64,000 nt of DNA from a virus. Taxonomy: Duplodnaviria > Heunggongvirae > Uroviricota > Caudoviricetes. Shown piece by piece: positions 43,843-54,175 of this stretch. Each line of letters begins with the position of its first letter. Position 1 is the first letter of the stretch. The DNA lies in IMG/VR virus record IMGVR_UViG_2513237361_000012, positions 1 to 64,000 of that record. One strand, 5' to 3'. The notes beneath the pieces were generated by a model, which saw only the letters and a list, made by a program, of their open reading frames with translations, was not told the origin of the DNA and made no database searches. A program made the translations under genes and the position numbers.

Positions 43843-44696
43843 GCACCATTCTGAAATGGGCGGGTAATAAAACCGCCATTATGTCCGAACTGAAAAAATA
43901 CCTTCCTGCTGGCCCGCGACTGGTTGAACCTTTCGCGGGTTCTTGTGCTGTGATGATAGAGACGGATTACCCCAGCTATCTTGTTGCGGATATTAATCCT
44001 GATTTAATCAACCTCTATAAAAAGGTTGCTGCTGATTGCGAGGCGTTTATATCTCGTGCCAGAGCTTTATTTGAGGAAGCAAACAGTGAGCTGGCTTATT
44101 ACAACATAAGGCAGGAGTTTAATTACTCAACTGAAATTACTGATTTCATGAAAGCGGTATATTTCCTGTATCTCAATCGTCACGGTTACCGTGGGTTATG
44201 TCGCTATAACAAGAGCGGGTATTTCAACATTCCCTACGGTAATTATAAAAATCCGTATTTCCCTGAAAAAGAAATTCGCGCATTTGCAGAGAAAGCCCAG
44301 CGATCAACGTTTATCTGCGCCAGCTTTGATGAAACGCTGGCGATGCTGCAGGTGGGGGATGTGGTGTATTGCGATCCGCCTTATGACGGTACGTTTTCCG
44401 GTTATCACACTGACGGCTTCACTGAAGATGACCAGTATCACCTGGCATCCGTTCTTGAACATCGGTCATCAGAAGGACATCCCGTCATTGTTTCTAACAG
44501 TGACACATCCCTGATCCGTTCGCTGTATCGCAATTTTACTCACCACTACATCAAGGCAAAACGCAGCATCAGTGTGGCAGCTGGTGATAGTAAATCTGCA
44601 ACAGAAATCATTGCTGTTTCCGGGGCGCGCTGCTGGGTGGGATTTGATCCTTCGCGTGGCGTAGATAGTTCTGCTGTGTACGAGGTGCGTGTATGA
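43839..44696 (+). CDS. dam: DNA adenine methyltransferase (Dam-like, N6-A MTase)
   Basis: N-terminal KWAGNK...PFAGS (SAM binding) and DPPY catalytic motif. Confidence 0.85.
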
Positions 44697-47107
44697 GTCA
44701 TGACGATATGAGCAACTCTAGCGGCTTTAACGAGGCCGCTGCATCATTTTCATGGAACGGCCCGAAAAAGGCCATTAACCCTTATCTGGACCCGGCGGAA
44801 GTTGCGCCGGAGTCTGCACTTTCAAACCTGATCACTCTGTATGTTGCCGATAACGAGCAGGAACAACTGCGCCGCGAGGCACTGAGTGAGCAGGTCTGGG
44901 AGCGTTATTTCTTTAATGAATCCCGTGATCCTGTCCAGCGCGAAATGGAGCAGGATAAGCTCATTAGCCGGGCAAAGCTGGCGCATGAGCAGCAGCGTTT
45001 TAATCCAGACATGGTCATTCTGGCTGACGTCAACGCCCAGCCTTCCCATATCAGCAAGCCGCTGATGCAACGTATTGAATACTTCAGCAGCTTGGGCAGG
45101 CCAAAGGCTTATTCCCGCTATTTGCGTGAGACGATTAAGCCATGTCTGGAACGACTGGAGCATGTACGCGACAGTCAGCTATCCACTTCTTTTCGCTTTA
45201 TGGCAAGCCATGAAGGGCTGGACGGCCTGCTGATCCTGCCTGAAATGAGTCAGGATCAGGTGAAACGCCTGTCTACCCTTGTCGCTGCGCATATGAGCAT
45301 GTGTCTTGATGCCGCTTGTGGTGATTTGTACGCCACCGATGATGTTAAGCCAGAAGAAATCCGCAAGACATGGGAAAAGGTGGCAGCGGAAACCCTACGT
45401 TTGGATGTCATCCCGCCTGCGTTTGAGCAACTCCGTCGGAAAAGAAACCGCCGTAAACCAGTGCCCTATGAACTCATTCCGGGCTCGCTGGCGCGTATGC
45501 TGTGCGCCGACTGGTGGTATCGGAAATTGTGGAAGATGCGTTGCGAATGGCGGGAAGAGCAGTTGCGTGCTGTCTGCCTGGTCAGCAAAAAAGCATCTCC
45601 CTATGTCAGCTATGAAGCTGTGATGCATAAACGTGAGCAGCGCCGTAAGTCGCTGGAGTTTTTCCGTTCTCATGAACTGGTGAACGAAGACGGAGACGCG
45701 CTGGATATGGAAGATGTGGTAAACGCCAGCTGCAGCAACCCGGCGCATCGCCGCAATGAGATGATGGCCTGTGTTAAAGGTCTGGAGCTTATCGCGGAAA
45801 TGCGCGGTGACTGCGCCGTTTTCTACACCATTACCTGTCCGTCACGTTTCCATTCCACGCTCAATAACGGCAGACCCAACCCGACCTGGAAAAACGCGAC
45901 GGTAAGACAAAGCAGCGATTATCTGGTCGGTATGTTTGCTGCATTTCGTAAGGCGATGCACAAAGCCGGGTTGCGCTGGTATGGCGTGCGGGTGGCTGAG
46001 CCGCATCACGACGGCACAGTTCACTGGCACCTGTTGTGTTTCATGCGCAAAAAAGACCGCCGCGCCATTACTGCATTGTTGCGTAAGTTTGCTATCCGTG
46101 AAGACCGCGAGGAGCTGGGCAATAACACGGGGCCGCGCTTTAAGTCTGAGCTGATTAACCCGCGCAAAGGAACGCCGACAAGCTACATAGCGAAATACAT
46201 CAGTAAGAACATTGACGGGCGTGGTCTGGCTGGCGAGATCAGCAAGGAAACGGGTAAATCTCTTCGTGATAACGCTGAATACGTGAATGCCTGGGCGTCT
46301 TTGCATCGTGTTCAGCAATTCCGCTTCTTTGGTATTCCGGGGCGTCAGGCTTACCGTGAACTGCGATTGCTGGCTGGTCAGGCGGCAAGGCAGCAGGGTG
46401 ACAAAAAAGCAGGTGTGCCGGTACTGGATAACCCGCGCCTTGATGCCATTCTGGCTGCTGCTGATGCTGGTTGTTTTGCCACCTATATCATGAAGCAGGG
46501 AGGTGTACTGGTTCCCCGTAAATATCACCTCATCAGAACCGCTTATGAAATTAACGAAGAGCCGACCGCCTATGGCGATCACGGTATTCGTATTTATGGC
46601 ATCTGGTCACCCATTGCAGAGGGCAAGATCTGCACTCATGCAGTGAAGTGGAAAATGGTTCGTAAGGCCGTTGACGTTCAGGAGGCGGCAGCCGACCAGG
46701 GCGCTTGTGCCCCTTGGACTCGTGGCAATAACTGTCCCCTTGCTGAAAATTTGTACCAACAGGAGAAAGATAAATCAGCTGATGGGGACACCAGAACAGA
46801 CATTACCCGCATGGATGACAAGGAGTTGCACGATTACCTGCACAGTATGAGCAAAAAAGAGCTCCGGGAACTGGCAGCAAGGTTACGCCTGGTTAAGCCG
46901 AAACGGCGTAAAGACTACAAACAGCGAATTACAGATCATCAGCGACAGCAGCTCGTCTATGAACTGAAGTCCAGAGGATTTGATGGCAGCGAGAAAGAGG
47001 TCGATTTACTCCTTCGCGGTGGCAGTATTCCGTCAGGAACAGGCCTGCGTATCTTCTATCGGAACCAGCGTTTGCAGGAAGATGATAAGTGGCGGAACCT
47101 GTATTAA
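44693..47107 (+). CDS. A: Replication initiation endonuclease A (P2/186 gpA family)
   Basis: 804 aa, rolling-circle initiator-like, canonical position after early genes. Confidence 0.8.
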
Positions 47108-47388: not shown

Positions 47389-47682
47389 ATGAACTCATGG
47401 CAAAAATCAGAACCCACGAATACAACCGCTCAATGGATGTCATCAGTTGAGGTGACTTTTATGCGCATTGAAATAATGATCGATAAAGAGCAGAAGATTA
47501 GCCAGTCTATCCTGGACGCCCTTGAATCCGAGCTTTACCGCAATTTGCGCCCCCTGTATCCAAAAACGGTAATTCGTATCCGCAAAGGTAGCTCTAACGG
47601 TGTGGAACTGACCGGACTGCAACTGGACGAAAGAAAGGAAGCAAGTGATGAAAATTATGCAGAAGGTGTGGGAAGACGATAG
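47389..47682 (+). CDS. DinI-family protein (Tum-like SOS-inducible factor); start may be at 47461
   Basis: C-terminal about 74 aa (MRIEIMIDKEQ...) resemble DinI family; LexA box upstream as for 186 tum. Confidence 0.55.
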   Translation: MNSWQKSEPTNTTAQWMSSVEVTFMRIEIMIDKEQKISQSILDALESELYRNLRPLYPKTVIRIRKGSSNGVELTGLQLDERKEASDENYAEGVGRR

Positions 47683-47870
47683 CTGGCTGCATTAAGAAAC
47701 GTTGCCCCCAGTAGGGTTCATTCTGATGGGGGCTAGTTTGAGCAACGAGTGAAACGAGGCGTTAGGTGGGAGGCCATTTTGATAAGTTATCACCCACTTT
47801 ATACCAATAACAGAACTGCGTAATAACTATTTACCTCGGGGGGGAGATGTGAGCCATACAAATTTCAGTA

Positions 47871-48929
47871 TTAATTTTCAATTCCCTCCATTTTACAATG
47901 AGTTTTTTCCCAGAACTGTAATACAACAGGACTAGCCCACTCTGGCATCAGTGCGTTATTTAAAAAACTGAAAACATCATGAGACGCATCAGCATTTTTT
48001 CTAAGGAATTTCCAGCCTTTTCTAGTATTTATCTCAACAATACCTAACCCACCATCATCAAACATATGCATCTTGAATTCAGGATTGTTTACACCTAGAG
48101 ATTTTATTTCTTTTATGTATGGACTATCTTCATCCATAAATATTTTCTCTATGTGCTTAGCACAATGATATATTTTATTTCGATAAGTTGATACGCTCAC
48201 AGCGGTACGCGCTGTTGTTATTCCCATTCCTAATGGGGCATATGCTTTTCCATCCATCACTACGGGCAGATTTATTCCATTTTTTCTTAAGTTTGCAATA
48301 TCTGAATCTGTAGTTGGATGAATACAAGCTAAGCCTGAAATACCTTTCATTTCAAATATTTCTGCTGCTTCTGGCCAGTTGCGTATGAATGTTTCTACCA
48401 AATCTCTTTGAGAAAAAAGATTTGGTTCTATGTTTTTATCATGATGTTTTATATCAATAAAAAGCACAGCGTTTGAGTACACCTTCAGGAATAATACCCA
48501 CTCAGCACGATCTGAGTATTTTTTACTTGAACTTACTGGATTTAATGGCAGATGGAGGTGATGAATCCCCCAATCAGCCCATAGGTTATCCGTTCTTTTC
48601 GTCGCCTTTTTACCGCTTGTGTCATTGAATAATGTTAATGTTTTACTCTGATAAGGATTTACATCACCACCAGTAGTAAACAACATCTCGATTCTCTGCA
48701 ATCCAACCCTTGCGCCATCGTGAATATTTTCAGGAAATCGATCTGATTTTAAAATTATTCGTTTTTGTGGAACAATGTAGCGTAAAAGAAAATCACACCA
48801 CCTCAGTAGAGGATCGTGAAGATTTGAGTGCCCGGATTCATCATATAATAACCCAAATGCTTGAATTCCCTTCTCTGAAATTTCGTCAATATCTTTGATT
48901 AGATTAATATTTTTTCGTGCGTCCAACAT
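47871..48929 (-). CDS. Hypothetical 352-aa protein, accessory cargo
   Basis: Long uninterrupted AT-rich ORF between tum-like gene and cos/retron; no family recognised by eye. Confidence 0.6.
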   Translation of the reverse strand: MLDARKNINLIKDIDEISEKGIQAFGLLYDESGHSNLHDPLLRWCDFLLRYIVPQKRIILKSDRFPENIHDGARVGLQRIEMLFTTGGDVNPYQSKTLTLFNDTSGKKATKRTDNLWADWGIHHLHLPLNPVSSSKKYSDRAEWVLFLKVYSNAVLFIDIKHHDKNIEPNLFSQRDLVETFIRNWPEAAEIFEMKGISGLACIHPTTDSDIANLRKNGINLPVVMDGKAYAPLGMGITTARTAVSVSTYRNKIYHCAKHIEKIFMDEDSPYIKEIKSLGVNNPEFKMHMFDDGGLGIVEINTRKGWKFLRKNADASHDVFSFLNNALMPEWASPVVLQFWEKTHCKMEGIEN

Positions 48930-49323
48930 ACTAACTCCGTTTAAATATAATTTTTTAGTATTTCAGTTAATTAATATCTATACGCCGTTATAGCTGAATT
49001 TTCCGGTGATTTCAGGGCACATTAACCAATTTAGATAATACTATAGTAATGGTTGGGCTGATTTTTCAAGAACAAAAGTAATTTTCAAGCTTTGTAACAT
49101 GTTGATTTTCCACTTTTCGCTCAAGCGAGCTTTCATCTTTGCAAGCCCATATGTTCGTTTTTCAAGCGATTATTCAGATACGTTAACTTCCCATGGCAGT
49201 GCATGACTATGCTGCATGAAATCGCATGATCGATCGAGGATCGTCTATGCTTAGACCAGCCAGAAATGGCGGGCTTTTGCTCATGTCATGCAGCTGCATG
49301 AAAACCACTGCATAAAGTGGGCA

Positions 49324-49342
49324 GGCGTGGCGGGGATACGAG
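49324..49342. other. cos-like cohesive-end site
   Basis: GGCGTGGCGGGGA matches the first 13 nt of the 186/P2 cos sequence as I recall it; position between A-side genes and Q. Confidence 0.4.
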
Positions 49343-49412
49343 GGCGCGCTATCACGTAAAATAGGCAAAATACTTCTGGAAAACAGAAAGTTGAAGTGAT
49401 ATGTTCATAAAC

Positions 49413-51342
<1,930 letters not shown>

Positions 51343-51383
51343 TGAACAGCCCTAACGTTATGAACGCTAAGGCTGATTTTTCG

Positions 51384-52412
51384 TTAAAATTTATATGGTT
51401 TGAATTGTAATATATTATCTTCAAGCCATTTATTTAATTCCTGCATCCTTTTCTGTAAGGGTATTAATTCGTTCCTCACAAACACTAAACTCGCTTTTTC
51501 CACATCCCCAAACCCCCCGACATTATTTGGCATAATCCCCATCATTTGCGGCGGCACACGATGTGCTGCCATCATGTCATCCCGACTCACGTTCTTGATA
51601 TTCAAAAACTCATCCTTCGCTGCGACCTCTGACAACGGGATAATCTGAAGTCCGTCCTTTTTGCCGTTAGGCGAGTACATAAACAGATTGCGGAAGTTGC
51701 CAGGGCCTTTGGCGCTTTTCATCGCATTGCGGAGGTTGTTCACATCCTCCTGGTTCTGCGCTGCATCGGTCATGTACATGATGAAGCCTGCATGACTGCC
51801 GTTAATGTAATACTTGCGGCGGAACAGCGTGGCGGACTCGTTGAGCAGAGCTGACGGAATGGCAGAAAGATAACCGGGCAGGCCGTAGATCTCCTGGTTG
51901 ATGTCCGGTTCCATCAGATGAAAAATGTTGCCTTTCGTGAACTGATACGGCTGCGTAGTCATGCCGTATTGCACAAACCAGTAGGTATCCAGGTCTAACC
52001 CGCGTCGGGTGTATTTTGCCAGTGCAGGCTCAAGGGCGATAACTTCACCGAAGCGGTTCGTGCGTTTCTCCAGGTAGGCGTTACCAAAAACCAGATAGTC
52101 CTGTACAAAACGCGAAAAAGCCTGCTGGCTGAGCAGCGGGTGAGGGATGTAGGTGCTGGTCAGAATGTTGCACTTCACTGCAATCGGTGAGCTGTGATGC
52201 ACGGCGGCGCGGAAGGTTCGCGCCAGTCCGTCGAAACTCACAGGCGGCTCATACCAACGATCCATCTGTACGCATTCCACATAGTCCAGCAGTTCGCGGC
52301 GGTCCAGAACAGGAACGGGATCACCGAAGCTGAATGCTTCGGCTGAAGTCTGGCTTTTATGCTGGCTCTGTTTCGTCGACGCAGCGCGGTTCTTCTTACT
52401 CTTTCCCATCAA
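51384..52412 (-). CDS. Q: Portal protein (P2 gpQ-like)
   Basis: 342 aa, position and orientation as P2 Q next to terminase P. Confidence 0.85.
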   Translation of the reverse strand: MMGKSKKNRAASTKQSQHKSQTSAEAFSFGDPVPVLDRRELLDYVECVQMDRWYEPPVSFDGLARTFRAAVHHSSPIAVKCNILTSTYIPHPLLSQQAFSRFVQDYLVFGNAYLEKRTNRFGEVIALEPALAKYTRRGLDLDTYWFVQYGMTTQPYQFTKGNIFHLMEPDINQEIYGLPGYLSAIPSALLNESATLFRRKYYINGSHAGFIMYMTDAAQNQEDVNNLRNAMKSAKGPGNFRNLFMYSPNGKKDGLQIIPLSEVAAKDEFLNIKNVSRDDMMAAHRVPPQMMGIMPNNVGGFGDVEKASLVFVRNELIPLQKRMQELNKWLEDNILQFKPYKF

Positions 52413-54175
52413 AAAATCTCCACAATATTGCTGGTATTGGCGGACTCGCCCTGCAGCGGTTCGTTAAACAGTGCGTGCATTGTTGCCCAGGCCAGATCGG
52501 CATGGCTGGCTTCTTCGCTGCGGCTGGCTTCATAGGTCGGGCGGTTGCCACTGGCAGTGGTAGCGCGACGGATTGCCATAAATGACTGCGCAATGTCGGT
52601 GTGCCCGGCGTCAAACTCCAGACGGCGGTGGCTGATAATGTCGTAGGCCTTGAGTACCAGGGCGTTTTTAACGTTGGGGTTATAGACAAACTCCCTGACG
52701 GCAGGAAAAAACGCTTTCACGTTCTCGTAAACCCCGTGACCGACGCCGGTCGAGTCGATACCGATATAGGTCACGTTATACTGTTCGGTCAGTTTTTTGA
52801 TGGCGTCAGCCTGGGCGCGGAAGTCCATCCCGCGCCACTGGTGACGCTCAAGAATGCGGAACTTACCACCCGGCACGGCTGGCGGAGCCACCACCACGCA
52901 TCCGGCACTGTCGCCGTTCTGCGTACCTTTTGCCGGGTCATAACCGATCCACACTTCGTGCCAGCCAAACGGGCGCAGGGCCAGTGCATGAAAGTCGGTC
53001 CAGACTTCCCAGCTGTCCACCATGCACGCCTGCAGTTCGCTGAGCGGGAACACGGACGCGAGATCGTCCACGAACTCGCACATCAGCAGGTTCTGGTATT
53101 CGTCCGGGCTGTACTCCATGCGCAGCTGGTCGAGGTCGAACAGGTTACAGCCGCCGCGCACCGCATCTTCCACGGTGACTATCTGGCGGTATTGCCCGTC
53201 TGCGCACAGCAGGCCGGGGGCCAGATTGTTGTGGGACAGGTCGATGTCCACCTTATCGGCTTTGTTGCGCCCACGGTTAAACAGAGCACCGGACCAGAAC
53301 GGATAAGCACTGTGTGTCAGGCTGGATGGCGTGGAAAAATAGGTTTGTCGCCATTTCTTGTGAATAGCCATCCCGGAAGCCACTTTGCGCAGCTCCTGGA
53401 ATTTCGGTATCCAGAAATATTCATCCAGATACAGGTTGCCGTGATAACTCTGGGCCGTGCGGGCATTGGTGCCGAGGAAGTAAAGAGTGGCTCCGTTAGG
53501 AAGCACCATCGGATCGCCTTTTAGCTCCACCTCGACTTCTTTGGCGAAGTCGATGATGTATTGTTTAAAGACGTGGGCCTGAGCCTTACTGGCAGAAAGG
53601 AAAATCTGGTTACGTCCGGTAAGCAGGGCGTCAATCAGGGCTTCACGGGCAAAATAGAAGGTCGCGCCGATCTGGCGAGACTTCAGCAGGTTGCGGATGC
53701 GGTTGGTTTTTCCGGCTTCCCACCAGTGGCGCTGGTAGTTGAACATGGAGGAATGGAAGATTTCTTCCAGCTTCTCAATCTGCTCATCGGTGAAAACATT
53801 CTTTTCCGGCTGACGGCGTGGGCCTTTATTGCGGTTGGCGACGTTAGGGTTTAAGTCGGCTTCGTTGCCGCCATTGTTAAACTTGCCGATCCGCGCGTGG
53901 CGCTCAGACTGGCGCGCCAGCAGGTCAATCTCTTTGAAATCTTTCCCTTCTTTGTGCTCCTTCATGATGAGCTGGCAGTAGCGTGCGGCGGTGGTGAGCT
54001 GCATCTGATCCAGCGGCCCATAGTCACCCCACTTGTCGCGTTTTTTCCAGCTGTGAACGGTTGCAACTTTCTCGCCCAGCATTTCAGCAATGCGGGCTAC
54101 GCGGTATCCCTGAAAGTACAGCAGCATGGCCTGCCGACGGGGATCGAGATCTGCGGGTGTCAGTGTGGTGTTCAT
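52409..54175 (-). CDS. P: Terminase ATPase subunit (P2 gpP-like)
   Basis: 588 aa, divergent from O-N-M-L operon as in P2. Confidence 0.85.
   Translation of the reverse strand: MNTTLTPADLDPRRQAMLLYFQGYRVARIAEMLGEKVATVHSWKKRDKWGDYGPLDQMQLTTAARYCQLIMKEHKEGKDFKEIDLLARQSERHARIGKFNNGGNEADLNPNVANRNKGPRRQPEKNVFTDEQIEKLEEIFHSSMFNYQRHWWEAGKTNRIRNLLKSRQIGATFYFAREALIDALLTGRNQIFLSASKAQAHVFKQYIIDFAKEVEVELKGDPMVLPNGATLYFLGTNARTAQSYHGNLYLDEYFWIPKFQELRKVASGMAIHKKWRQTYFSTPSSLTHSAYPFWSGALFNRGRNKADKVDIDLSHNNLAPGLLCADGQYRQIVTVEDAVRGGCNLFDLDQLRMEYSPDEYQNLLMCEFVDDLASVFPLSELQACMVDSWEVWTDFHALALRPFGWHEVWIGYDPAKGTQNGDSAGCVVVAPPAVPGGKFRILERHQWRGMDFRAQADAIKKLTEQYNVTYIGIDSTGVGHGVYENVKAFFPAVREFVYNPNVKNALVLKAYDIISHRRLEFDAGHTDIAQSFMAIRRATTASGNRPTYEASRSEEASHADLAWATMHALFNEPLQGESANTSNIVEIF

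Follow-up and report, generated by a model that had tools for sequence, protein, structure and literature searches.

A Predicted cos Packaging Site of a Fels-2/186-like Prophage with Defence Cargo Slots on Either Side

The Ec67 element was reportedly first described by Hsu, Inouye and Inouye in 1990. In a 186-related, Dam-encoding prophage, retron Ec67 is located between cos and the portal/packaging gene, according to the passages of later papers that cite the original description (Dodd and Egan, 1996, via PMC6868368 and PMC7826664), and the interval from cosL to gene Q is named as a site at which foreign genes are picked up in the part of PMC5694545 that refers to it (Dodd and Egan, 1996, Nakayama, 1999). 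Next to cos, the interval between genes A and Q of such phages is a hotspot in which retrons and many other defence systems are found (Rousset et al., 2022, PMC9122126, Vassallo et al., 2022), as restated in a 2026 survey (PMC13586616). A 55-bp core around the cohesive ends is credited to Ziermann and Calendar (1990) in the relevant passages of PMC3931495 and PMC5694545. Here, we describe the equivalent region of IMG/VR virus record IMGVR_UViG_2513237361_000012 (Caudoviricetes), in which a gene assigned to the defence system PD-T4-7 and a retron Ec67 stand on either side of a cos-like sequence. Positions 1 to 64,000 of the record were analysed, and this 64,000-nucleotide stretch is called the window below. 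The segment 49199-49349 is very probably the cos packaging site of a Fels-2/186-like prophage of the P2 family (Peduoviridae), with two defence slots beside it, and the original host element of retron Ec67 was a prophage of this same type.

An earlier reading of the sequence alone (the sequence-only reading) had noticed GGCGTGGCGGGGA at 49324-49336 and matched it to the start of a 19-nt cohesive end of the 186/P2 type. This 13-mer occurs once in the 64-kb window, shuffled sequences searched with at most one mismatch gave 0.15 matches, and it does begin a cos of the 186 type, since all 13/13 leading bases of the phage 186 cohesive end are identical. Across the whole 19-mer, about 16/19 bases agree (GGCGTGGCGGGGATACGAG in the window, GGCGTGGCGGGGAAAGCAT in 186), with differences at positions 14, 16, 17 and 19, and what stands of the 19-nt claim is a cohesive-end homologue in its Fels-2/SEN8 variant, not the exact 186 sequence. 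GGCGTGGCGGGGATACGAG is identical to bases 1-19 of Salmonella phage SEN8, annotated as "putative cos", and the SEN8 record terminates exactly at the equivalent of window position 49323. Escherichia phage Cartapus has the same 19-mer inside a 59-bp feature annotated as "putative cos, homologous to P2", and the cohesive end of Smp131 (PMC3931495) differs from the 19-mer by one base. The 19-mer thus has the form of a Peduoviridae cos, a GC-rich 19-nt end of the GGCG(A/T)GGCGGGG... type.

The flanks of the 19-mer are also alike. For comparison with the window, the right and left ends of P2 (NC_001895) and of 186 (NC_001317) were joined, and the similarity reaches into the 10 bases preceding the nick, AAAGTGGGCA, which are the same in the window and 186, and into GCGCGC at +21 to +26, which is common to the window, P2, 186 and P4. 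Alignment of P2, 186, P4, SEN8, Fels-2, ENT90 and others gives a conserved core, with TGCAT(T/G)AAAAC..AAAG(C/T)GGGC on the left of the nick and GCGCGC on its right, that is present in the window as well. By homology to P2 and 186, the top strand is predicted to be nicked before 49324 and the bottom strand after 49342. Furthermore, the site lies where a P2-family cos is expected and in the expected orientation, with the side of replication gene A to its left, portal gene Q to its right and terminase genes present, and the genes follow the P2 and 186 order A, DinI-like gene, cargo, cos, cargo, Q, P, O, N, M. This order bears out the placement of a 352-aa gene on the old/tin side of cos and of the retron between cos and Q. 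A chance match of the 13-mer to the 186 cos could appeal to the last six bases of the 19-mer, which partly differ from 186. However, the similarity extends over 151 bp of flanking sequence, the site has the correct A-Q position and the 19-mer is identical in other Peduoviridae, and together these exclude coincidence, whose probability we regard as negligible; a coincidental 13-mer lacking flanking similarity is not what we find. The site is almost certainly a homologue of cos on these comparisons, and it is very likely that it still functions as one.

The extent of the conserved module was defined in three ways. A scan of IMG/VR for the exact 19-mer returned at least 120 contigs, and 107 of the matches listed, with at least 400 bp on both sides, show a sharp island of conservation from −125 to +26 relative to the top-strand nick, with ungapped columns falling to background immediately outside on both flanks. 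In BLAST comparisons with phage records, similarity (80-89% identity to Fels-2, SopEPhi, RE2010, SEN8, and Klebsiella and Yersinia phages) is confined to 49198-49360. In complete E. coli genomes, breakpoints at 49198 and 49351 agree with these edges: the match runs to 49351 in genomes that have the 352-aa gene and no retron, and starts at 49198 or 49108 in genomes that have the retron and other left cargo. The module itself is found in 1393/5426 complete E. coli genomes. To its right, the element GTAAAATAGGCAAAAT resembles GTGAAATGGTGAAAAT in relatives with an empty right slot and GTGAATGATAAAAAT in 186 and is absent from GN02461, which carries DUF262 cargo; because this element is semi-conserved, the functional right edge of cos may extend past +26 in many phages.

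Within the module, the central inverted repeat, GCCCGCCAG-NN-CTGGCGGGC-TTTT in relatives, has the weaker form CCAGCCA-GAAA-TGGCGGG-C-TTTT in the window. This hairpin resembles a plus-strand terminator, and 186, P4 and distant lineages have retained it in variant sequences. Another hairpin just left of the nick, CCACTGCATAAAGTGG, resembles a minus-strand terminator and was rejected as a conserved structure: it contains a mismatch in SEN8, Fels-2, Cartapus and E7-1N7, and its pairing register differs in P2 and 186. One contig (L093, IMGVR_UViG_3300011853_000021) has two copies of the 19-mer in opposite orientations, approximately 3.2 kb apart.

The DNA on the two sides of the module varies independently. 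When 300 bp per side were clustered for 108 contigs among the matches listed, 56 left and 85 right flank classes were found in 101 combinations, and the right class containing Ec67 occurs with four left classes. Among the matches listed, slot sizes are 89-3095 bp on the left and 147-3525 bp on the right. Empty slots on the right measure 147-179 bp, including the terminator of the portal operon; for occupied slots on this side the median is 1682 bp and the maximum 3525 bp. In complete genomes, the partner of PD-T4-7 is a DUF262 protein in GN02461 and that of Ec67 is a DUF8087 protein in E7-1N7, and PD-T4-7 is also seen with other right cargo in L119; PD-T4-7 and Ec67 occur together in one (NCTC8623) of the 5426 complete E. 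coli genomes. Both cargo units of the window are directed away from cos, PD-T4-7 leftward and the retron rightward. The two cargo slots are therefore separate and assort independently, in agreement with the sequence-only reading, which had proposed two separate cargo sites flanking the packaging site.

The TGCATGA-type repeats that had been noted at 49200-49300 are present. In addition to the distal direct repeats R1-R3 (Table 1), TGCATGA occurs at 49295-49301, its inverted form TCATGCA at 49286-49292 and the variant TGCATAA at 49309-49315, and a stretch of 125 bp contains five copies of GCATG where 0.27 would be expected (P about 9e-6). R1-R3 lie at −124 to −95 with spacings of 13 and 10 bp, and the repeat triple is equally far from the nick in P2, 186, P4, ENT90 and YenM201, a Yersinia enterocolitica phage. 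The nick-proximal inverted pair is kept in 186, P4 and the Fels-2 group, and in P4 the TGCAT triple, the central hairpin and the proximal pair all stand at unchanged distances. Satellite P4 shares only the cos region with P2 and depends on its helper for packaging (Rousset et al., 2022, PMC9122126).

The distal and proximal repeats also change together. A broader scan with the pattern GGCGNGGCGGGGN8GCGCGC gave 30 different 19-mers, and across these lineages the distal motif follows the proximal one (TGCAT, TGCAC, CCGACG and CGCAGG types). Indeed, among 35 representatives, the proximal 5-mer of a lineage occurs 1.29 times in its own distal region, compared with 0.068 times for motifs of foreign lineages. 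This co-variation, and the retention of the repeats in satellite P4, support the idea that both repeat sites are read by one co-evolving phage protein. By analogy with lambda cosB, the small subunit of terminase would be the obvious candidate for binding the repeats, and the TGCAT repeats are probably terminase recognition sites.

The sequence-only reading had left the choice between terminase elements and operators for the divergent cargo genes. That the TGCATGA-type repeats are operators or promoter elements of these genes is very improbable. In P2, the old-tin mRNA starts (33424 and 33426) are just left of the triple, and promoter overlap is possible there. However, the sequence and position of the repeats persist across the 56 left and 85 right flank classes among the matches listed, 186 and P4 have the repeats with no divergent gene alongside, and the PD-T4-7 promoter travels with its gene, 130 bp outside the module. 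Since the repeats occur in 186 and P4 without a divergent gene and accompany every cargo class, they are not cargo operators, which would be tied to a particular regulated gene or regulator; of the two options, it is the terminase one that fits the TGCATGA type.

Several observations weigh against a functional cos recognised in this way. The cos annotations of SEN8 and Cartapus are themselves "putative" and made by homology. The window module departs from the majority consensus at 15/151 positions (136/151 are equal), and at +20 (49343), the first base past the cohesive end, it has a G that is found in 0/117 other contigs among the matches listed, which have C there. Three further substitutions weaken its central hairpin, and in view of these differences the function of the module may be reduced. 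Furthermore, the Aeromonas LPM4 lineage (L014 and L151), with GGATC(T/A) three times in the distal region and TGCATGG in the proximal one, is an exception to the co-variation.

The G at +20 and the weakened hairpin would suit a decayed cos relic in a defective prophage, one that is cleaved and packaged inefficiently or no longer, as would a 1-nt insertion in the DinI/Tum-like gene of the window and the annotation of tail genes as frameshifted in NCTC8623. The insertion is one extra A near 47630 (GACGAAAGAAAGG, compared with GACGAAGAAAGG in NCTC8623 in a pairwise alignment), which shifts the frame across the last approximately 20 codons; it is either a real mutation in an SOS-induction gene or a sequencing error. 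The phage also has a CI of the 186 type. We nevertheless consider a relic unlikely. The 19-mer, all TGCAT repeats and the flanking core are intact, and the structural and terminase genes of the window are intact open reading frames (ORFs). At +20, P2 and 186 have T, P4 has C and some distant lineages have G, so that the position varies among working members of the family. The frameshifts of NCTC8623 are at low-quality overlapping ends of the assembly, and we rejected them as a sign of a defective prophage in favour of an untrimmed, error-rich cos-retron-Q-P duplicate at the start of the record. The start of the NCTC8623 chromosome record (L243, NZ_LR134234.1, 1-9000, and L019) repeats cos, the retron and the portal, terminase and head genes in an error-rich form, with most of these genes annotated as frameshifted and the cos module at bases 35-185. 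This second copy looks like an untrimmed assembly overlap that starts beside cos, not a real duplication.

The repeats might also be true accessory sites of cos that are bound by a host nucleoid protein or by another DNA-bending phage protein. The regular spacing of the repeats, like the central palindrome, hints at an architectural complex, and the LPM4 lineage keeps TGCATG at the proximal site while its distal repeats are different. Such a binder seems improbable to us, because the motifs change across phage lineages within the same hosts, distal and proximal together, which points to a reader that is phage-encoded and co-evolving. In addition, P4, which has no terminase gene and uses the enzyme of its helper (PMC9122126), has retained the sites.

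Together, these features lead us to propose the following scheme. After replication, the terminase, with a gpM-like small subunit and a gpP-like large subunit encoded just rightward, would recognise the module. The small subunit would bind the TGCATGA-type repeats, three of which are direct and about one helical turn apart and two of which form the inverted pair, and the large subunit would make the staggered nicks that leave a 19-nt 5' overhang, GGCGTGGCGGGGATACGAG. In the integrated prophage, cos is internal and splits the A-Q accessory region into two slots that abut the module. PD-T4-7 in the left slot would be transcribed leftward from its own TTGAAA-N18-TATAGT promoter, and retron Ec67 in the right slot would be transcribed rightward. 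Cargo would presumably be swapped by recombination, anchored in the conserved module on one side and in the dinI-side spacer or the Q-side terminator on the other.

On the left, phages with an empty slot have approximately 80-90 bp after the DinI-like gene, ending in GTTGAACAACGAG...GAGGCGTTAGC, that directly adjoin the first TGCAT repeat. In the window, the corresponding backbone spacer stays beside the DinI-like gene and marks the left edge of the slot, so that the insertion point of the PD-T4-7 segment (approximately 47766-49198) coincides exactly with the left end of the module. The 352-aa protein was identified by PADLOC alone, a Pfam scan giving no family; the PDLC04066 match covers residues 1-342 of the protein and 1-335 of the 337 positions of the profile, and the defence function is a predicted one. 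A G at +20 is also seen in some other PD-T4-7 loci (L140).

The sequence-only reading had also listed repeats of TTTTCAAG at about 49063, 49082 and 49159 as possible terminase elements or operators. The three copies are confirmed at these places, and the window contains only one other, four in 64 kb. Some 8-mer in three non-overlapping copies arises in 4% of first-order Markov simulations of the AT-rich 268 bp, so that the clustering is only marginally unusual. On the strand of the PD-T4-7 gene, TTTTCAAG reads CTTGAAAA, and the −35 hexamer TTGAAA (49069-49064) of the predicted sigma-70 promoter, which is followed by an 18-nt spacer and the −10 element TATAGT (49045-49040), sits inside the first copy. 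A 68%-identical homologue on a viral contig (L147) has CTTGAAAAATCA...TATAGT equally far from the start codon and no cos within 1.5 kb upstream. Compared with L147, the window has a 19-nt insertion, CTTGAAAATTACTTTTGTT, a local duplication that makes the second copy. The third copy is beyond the L147 homology and has no convincing −10 element. The first TTTTCAAG copy is best read as the −35 element of a predicted promoter and the second as its local duplicate. A role as terminase elements was rejected, as they are outside the conserved island, travel with PD-T4-7 and are only marginally clustered; with respect to an operator array, they are cargo-linked, yet one is a −35 hexamer and one a duplication. 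What had been offered as a packaging or operator element would instead belong to the promoter region of PD-T4-7.

Immediately left of the module, the 90 bp at 49108-49197 include the third TTTTCAAG copy, have a small terminator-like hairpin at 49116-49129 and are common, at approximately 98% identity, to E. coli genomes with other left cargo (DUF8087, e.g., E7-1N7). Because this segment is common to genomes carrying different left cargo, it suggests that the cargo junctions are mosaic.

On the right, the cargo segment (approximately 49350-51376) has the features of a type I-C retron by sequence, a reverse transcriptase (RT) with a C-terminal Toprim domain and, directly upstream, an msr-msd region flanked by the repeats a1 (ACGCATGTAGGCA, 49413-49425) and a2 (TGCCTGCATGCGT, 49531-49543), which are 13 nt long and 92% complementary. 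The RT also matches Pfam RVT_1 and bears the RefSeq name "retron Ec67 family". An Rfam scan of 48900-49700 with E up to 1 gave no family, neither for the repeats nor for the non-coding RNA of the retron. The GC-rich terminator of the portal operon in empty-slot relatives is absent from the window, and its place is occupied by an imperfect hairpin that is the sole terminator-like element between the RT and portal genes and was not flagged by a terminator scan; given this absence, the terminator seems to have come with the retron module or to have been replaced by it. Genes O, N and M follow P, and a terminase endonuclease subunit is annotated downstream in RefSeq.

Table 1. Coordinates of the predicted cos module, its cargo slots and the neighbouring backbone genes in the window
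Feature	Position	Strand	Basis or remark
Replication gene A	44693-47107		ORF list, RefSeq
DinI/Tum-like gene, last conserved left backbone gene	47462-47695	+	Pfam DinI, E 2.7e-11; annotated in NCTC8623
Backbone spacer GTTTGAGCAACGAG...GAGGCGTTAG	47736-47765	+	Compared with 15 empty-left contigs
PD-T4-7 defence gene (predicted), 352 aa	47871-48929	-	PADLOC PDLC04066, E 8.8e-144
Predicted sigma-70 promoter of PD-T4-7	49040-49069	-	Promoter scan, 10/12 matches
Three TTTTCAAG copies (49063-49070, 49082-49089, 49159-49166)	49063-49166	.	Cargo-specific DNA outside the cos module
Conserved cos module	49199-49349	+	−125 to +26 relative to top-strand nick; conservation, BLAST, breakpoints
Distal direct repeats R1 (49200-49206) and R2 (49213-49219), TGCATGA; R3 (49223-49229), CGCATGA	49200-49229	+	Proposed cosB-like
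Central GC-rich inverted repeat and T-run	49256-49278	+	Alignment with relatives
Nick-proximal inverted pair TCATGCAG/CTGCATGA, then AAAAC	49286-49301	+	Perfect palindrome, −38 to −23
cosN, predicted 19-nt 5'-protruding cohesive end GGCGTGGCGGGGATACGAG	49324-49342	+	Homology: SEN8, Cartapus, 186
Semi-conserved element GTAAAATAGGCAAAAT	49356-49371	+	+33 to +48; comparison with relatives
msr-msd region, retron Ec67	49413-49543	+	Inverted-repeat search
Retron Ec67 (Eco2) RT-Toprim fusion, 586 aa	49582-51342	+	PADLOC RT-Toprim_I-C, E 4e-217, residues 2-583
Imperfect hairpin, 9/11 pairs, then ATTTTT	51347-51380	+	Read from sequence, between convergent RT and portal stop codons
Portal gene (P2 Q/186 W homologue), first right backbone gene	51384-52412	-	ORF list, RefSeq
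Terminase ATPase gene (P)	52409-54175	-	ORF list, RefSeq

Directly after R3, the window has three GATC sites (49228-49231, 49232-49235 and 49239-49242). Fels-2-group relatives keep a GATC...GGATC palindrome there, e.g., TGATCC-AAAA-GGATCA; P2, 186 and P4 are without it. A Dam methylase gene of the prophage is just upstream of gene A, and Dam is encoded in 35/42 informative contigs among the matches listed, a sample that had no contigs without the GATC pair. By analogy to P1 pac, recognition of cos might be methylation-sensitive. In a wider and tentative picture, which we think rather doubtful as a whole, the module would be a co-varying packaging "address code" whose edges act as recombination junctions for the slots, and the palindrome of the Fels-2 group would, together with Dam, make cos methylation-sensitive. 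If this were true, the distal and proximal motifs would define packaging specificity between helper and satellite and between phages, in Peduoviridae and P4-like satellites.

For annotation, the analysis places the predicted ends of the virion genome, sets the cargo boundaries to within a few bases and explains the repeats, and it places two defence systems, PD-T4-7 and retron Ec67, on either side of a packaging site. The finding is correct but already known, a retron beside cos having been published in 1996 and a defence hotspot close to cos in 2022, and it leaves current understanding unchanged. What is added is the module at base level (−125 to +26), the two independent slots and comparative evidence in favour of the TGCAT repeats as packaging recognition sites. 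The module boundaries, the independent slots, the co-variation of the repeats and the assignment of TTTTCAAG to a promoter were not found in the literature examined, outside of which two primary cos papers lie.

Among known systems, the Ec67 prophage (Dodd and Egan, 1996, Virology 219:115), as far as papers citing it portray it, is similar in the placement of the retron and in encoding Dam; the window has a 586-aa Ec67-family RT, a Dam gene upstream of A and its retron in that place. The window differs in having PD-T4-7 in its left slot, the pairing seen in 1/5426 complete E. coli genomes. With cos of 186 and P2, the site shares a 19-nt GC-rich end beginning GGCG(T/A)GGCGGGGA, AAAG(T/C)GGGC(A/G) on the left of the nick, GCGCGC on its right, the TGCAT triple at about −125 to −95, the proximal TGCAT(T/G)AAAAC and the location between A-side accessory genes and Q/W. 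It differs at positions 14-19 of the 19-mer (TACGAG in the window, AAGCAT in 186, AAGCAC in P2), in having a 2-kb retron where P2 and 186 have 160-170 bp from cos to the Q terminator, and in the GATC-containing palindrome after R3, which P2 and 186 lack.

The Fels-2 group (Fels-2, SEN8, SopEPhi, RE2010, Cartapus and Klebsiella prophages) has the identical 19-mer, 83-89% identity over the module and cargo on both sides of cos, although the genes are different from those of the window: a DNA-binding protein in SEN8, with a hypothetical protein and an HNH endonuclease across cos from it, DUF4145 in Cartapus, and STM2726 and STM2723.1 in Fels-2. In contrast to this group, the window has G instead of C at +20 and a weakened central hairpin. 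In lambda cosB, a short array of repeats (R sites) beside the nicking site positions the terminase. The repeat array beside the P2-type nick may be comparable by analogy, with no sequence relation, and P2-type cos has its repeats on the opposite arm relative to the head genes. Finally, where A-Q has been taken as one hotspot (Rousset et al., 2022, Vassallo et al., 2022), we find two independently assorting slots that abut a 151-bp module.

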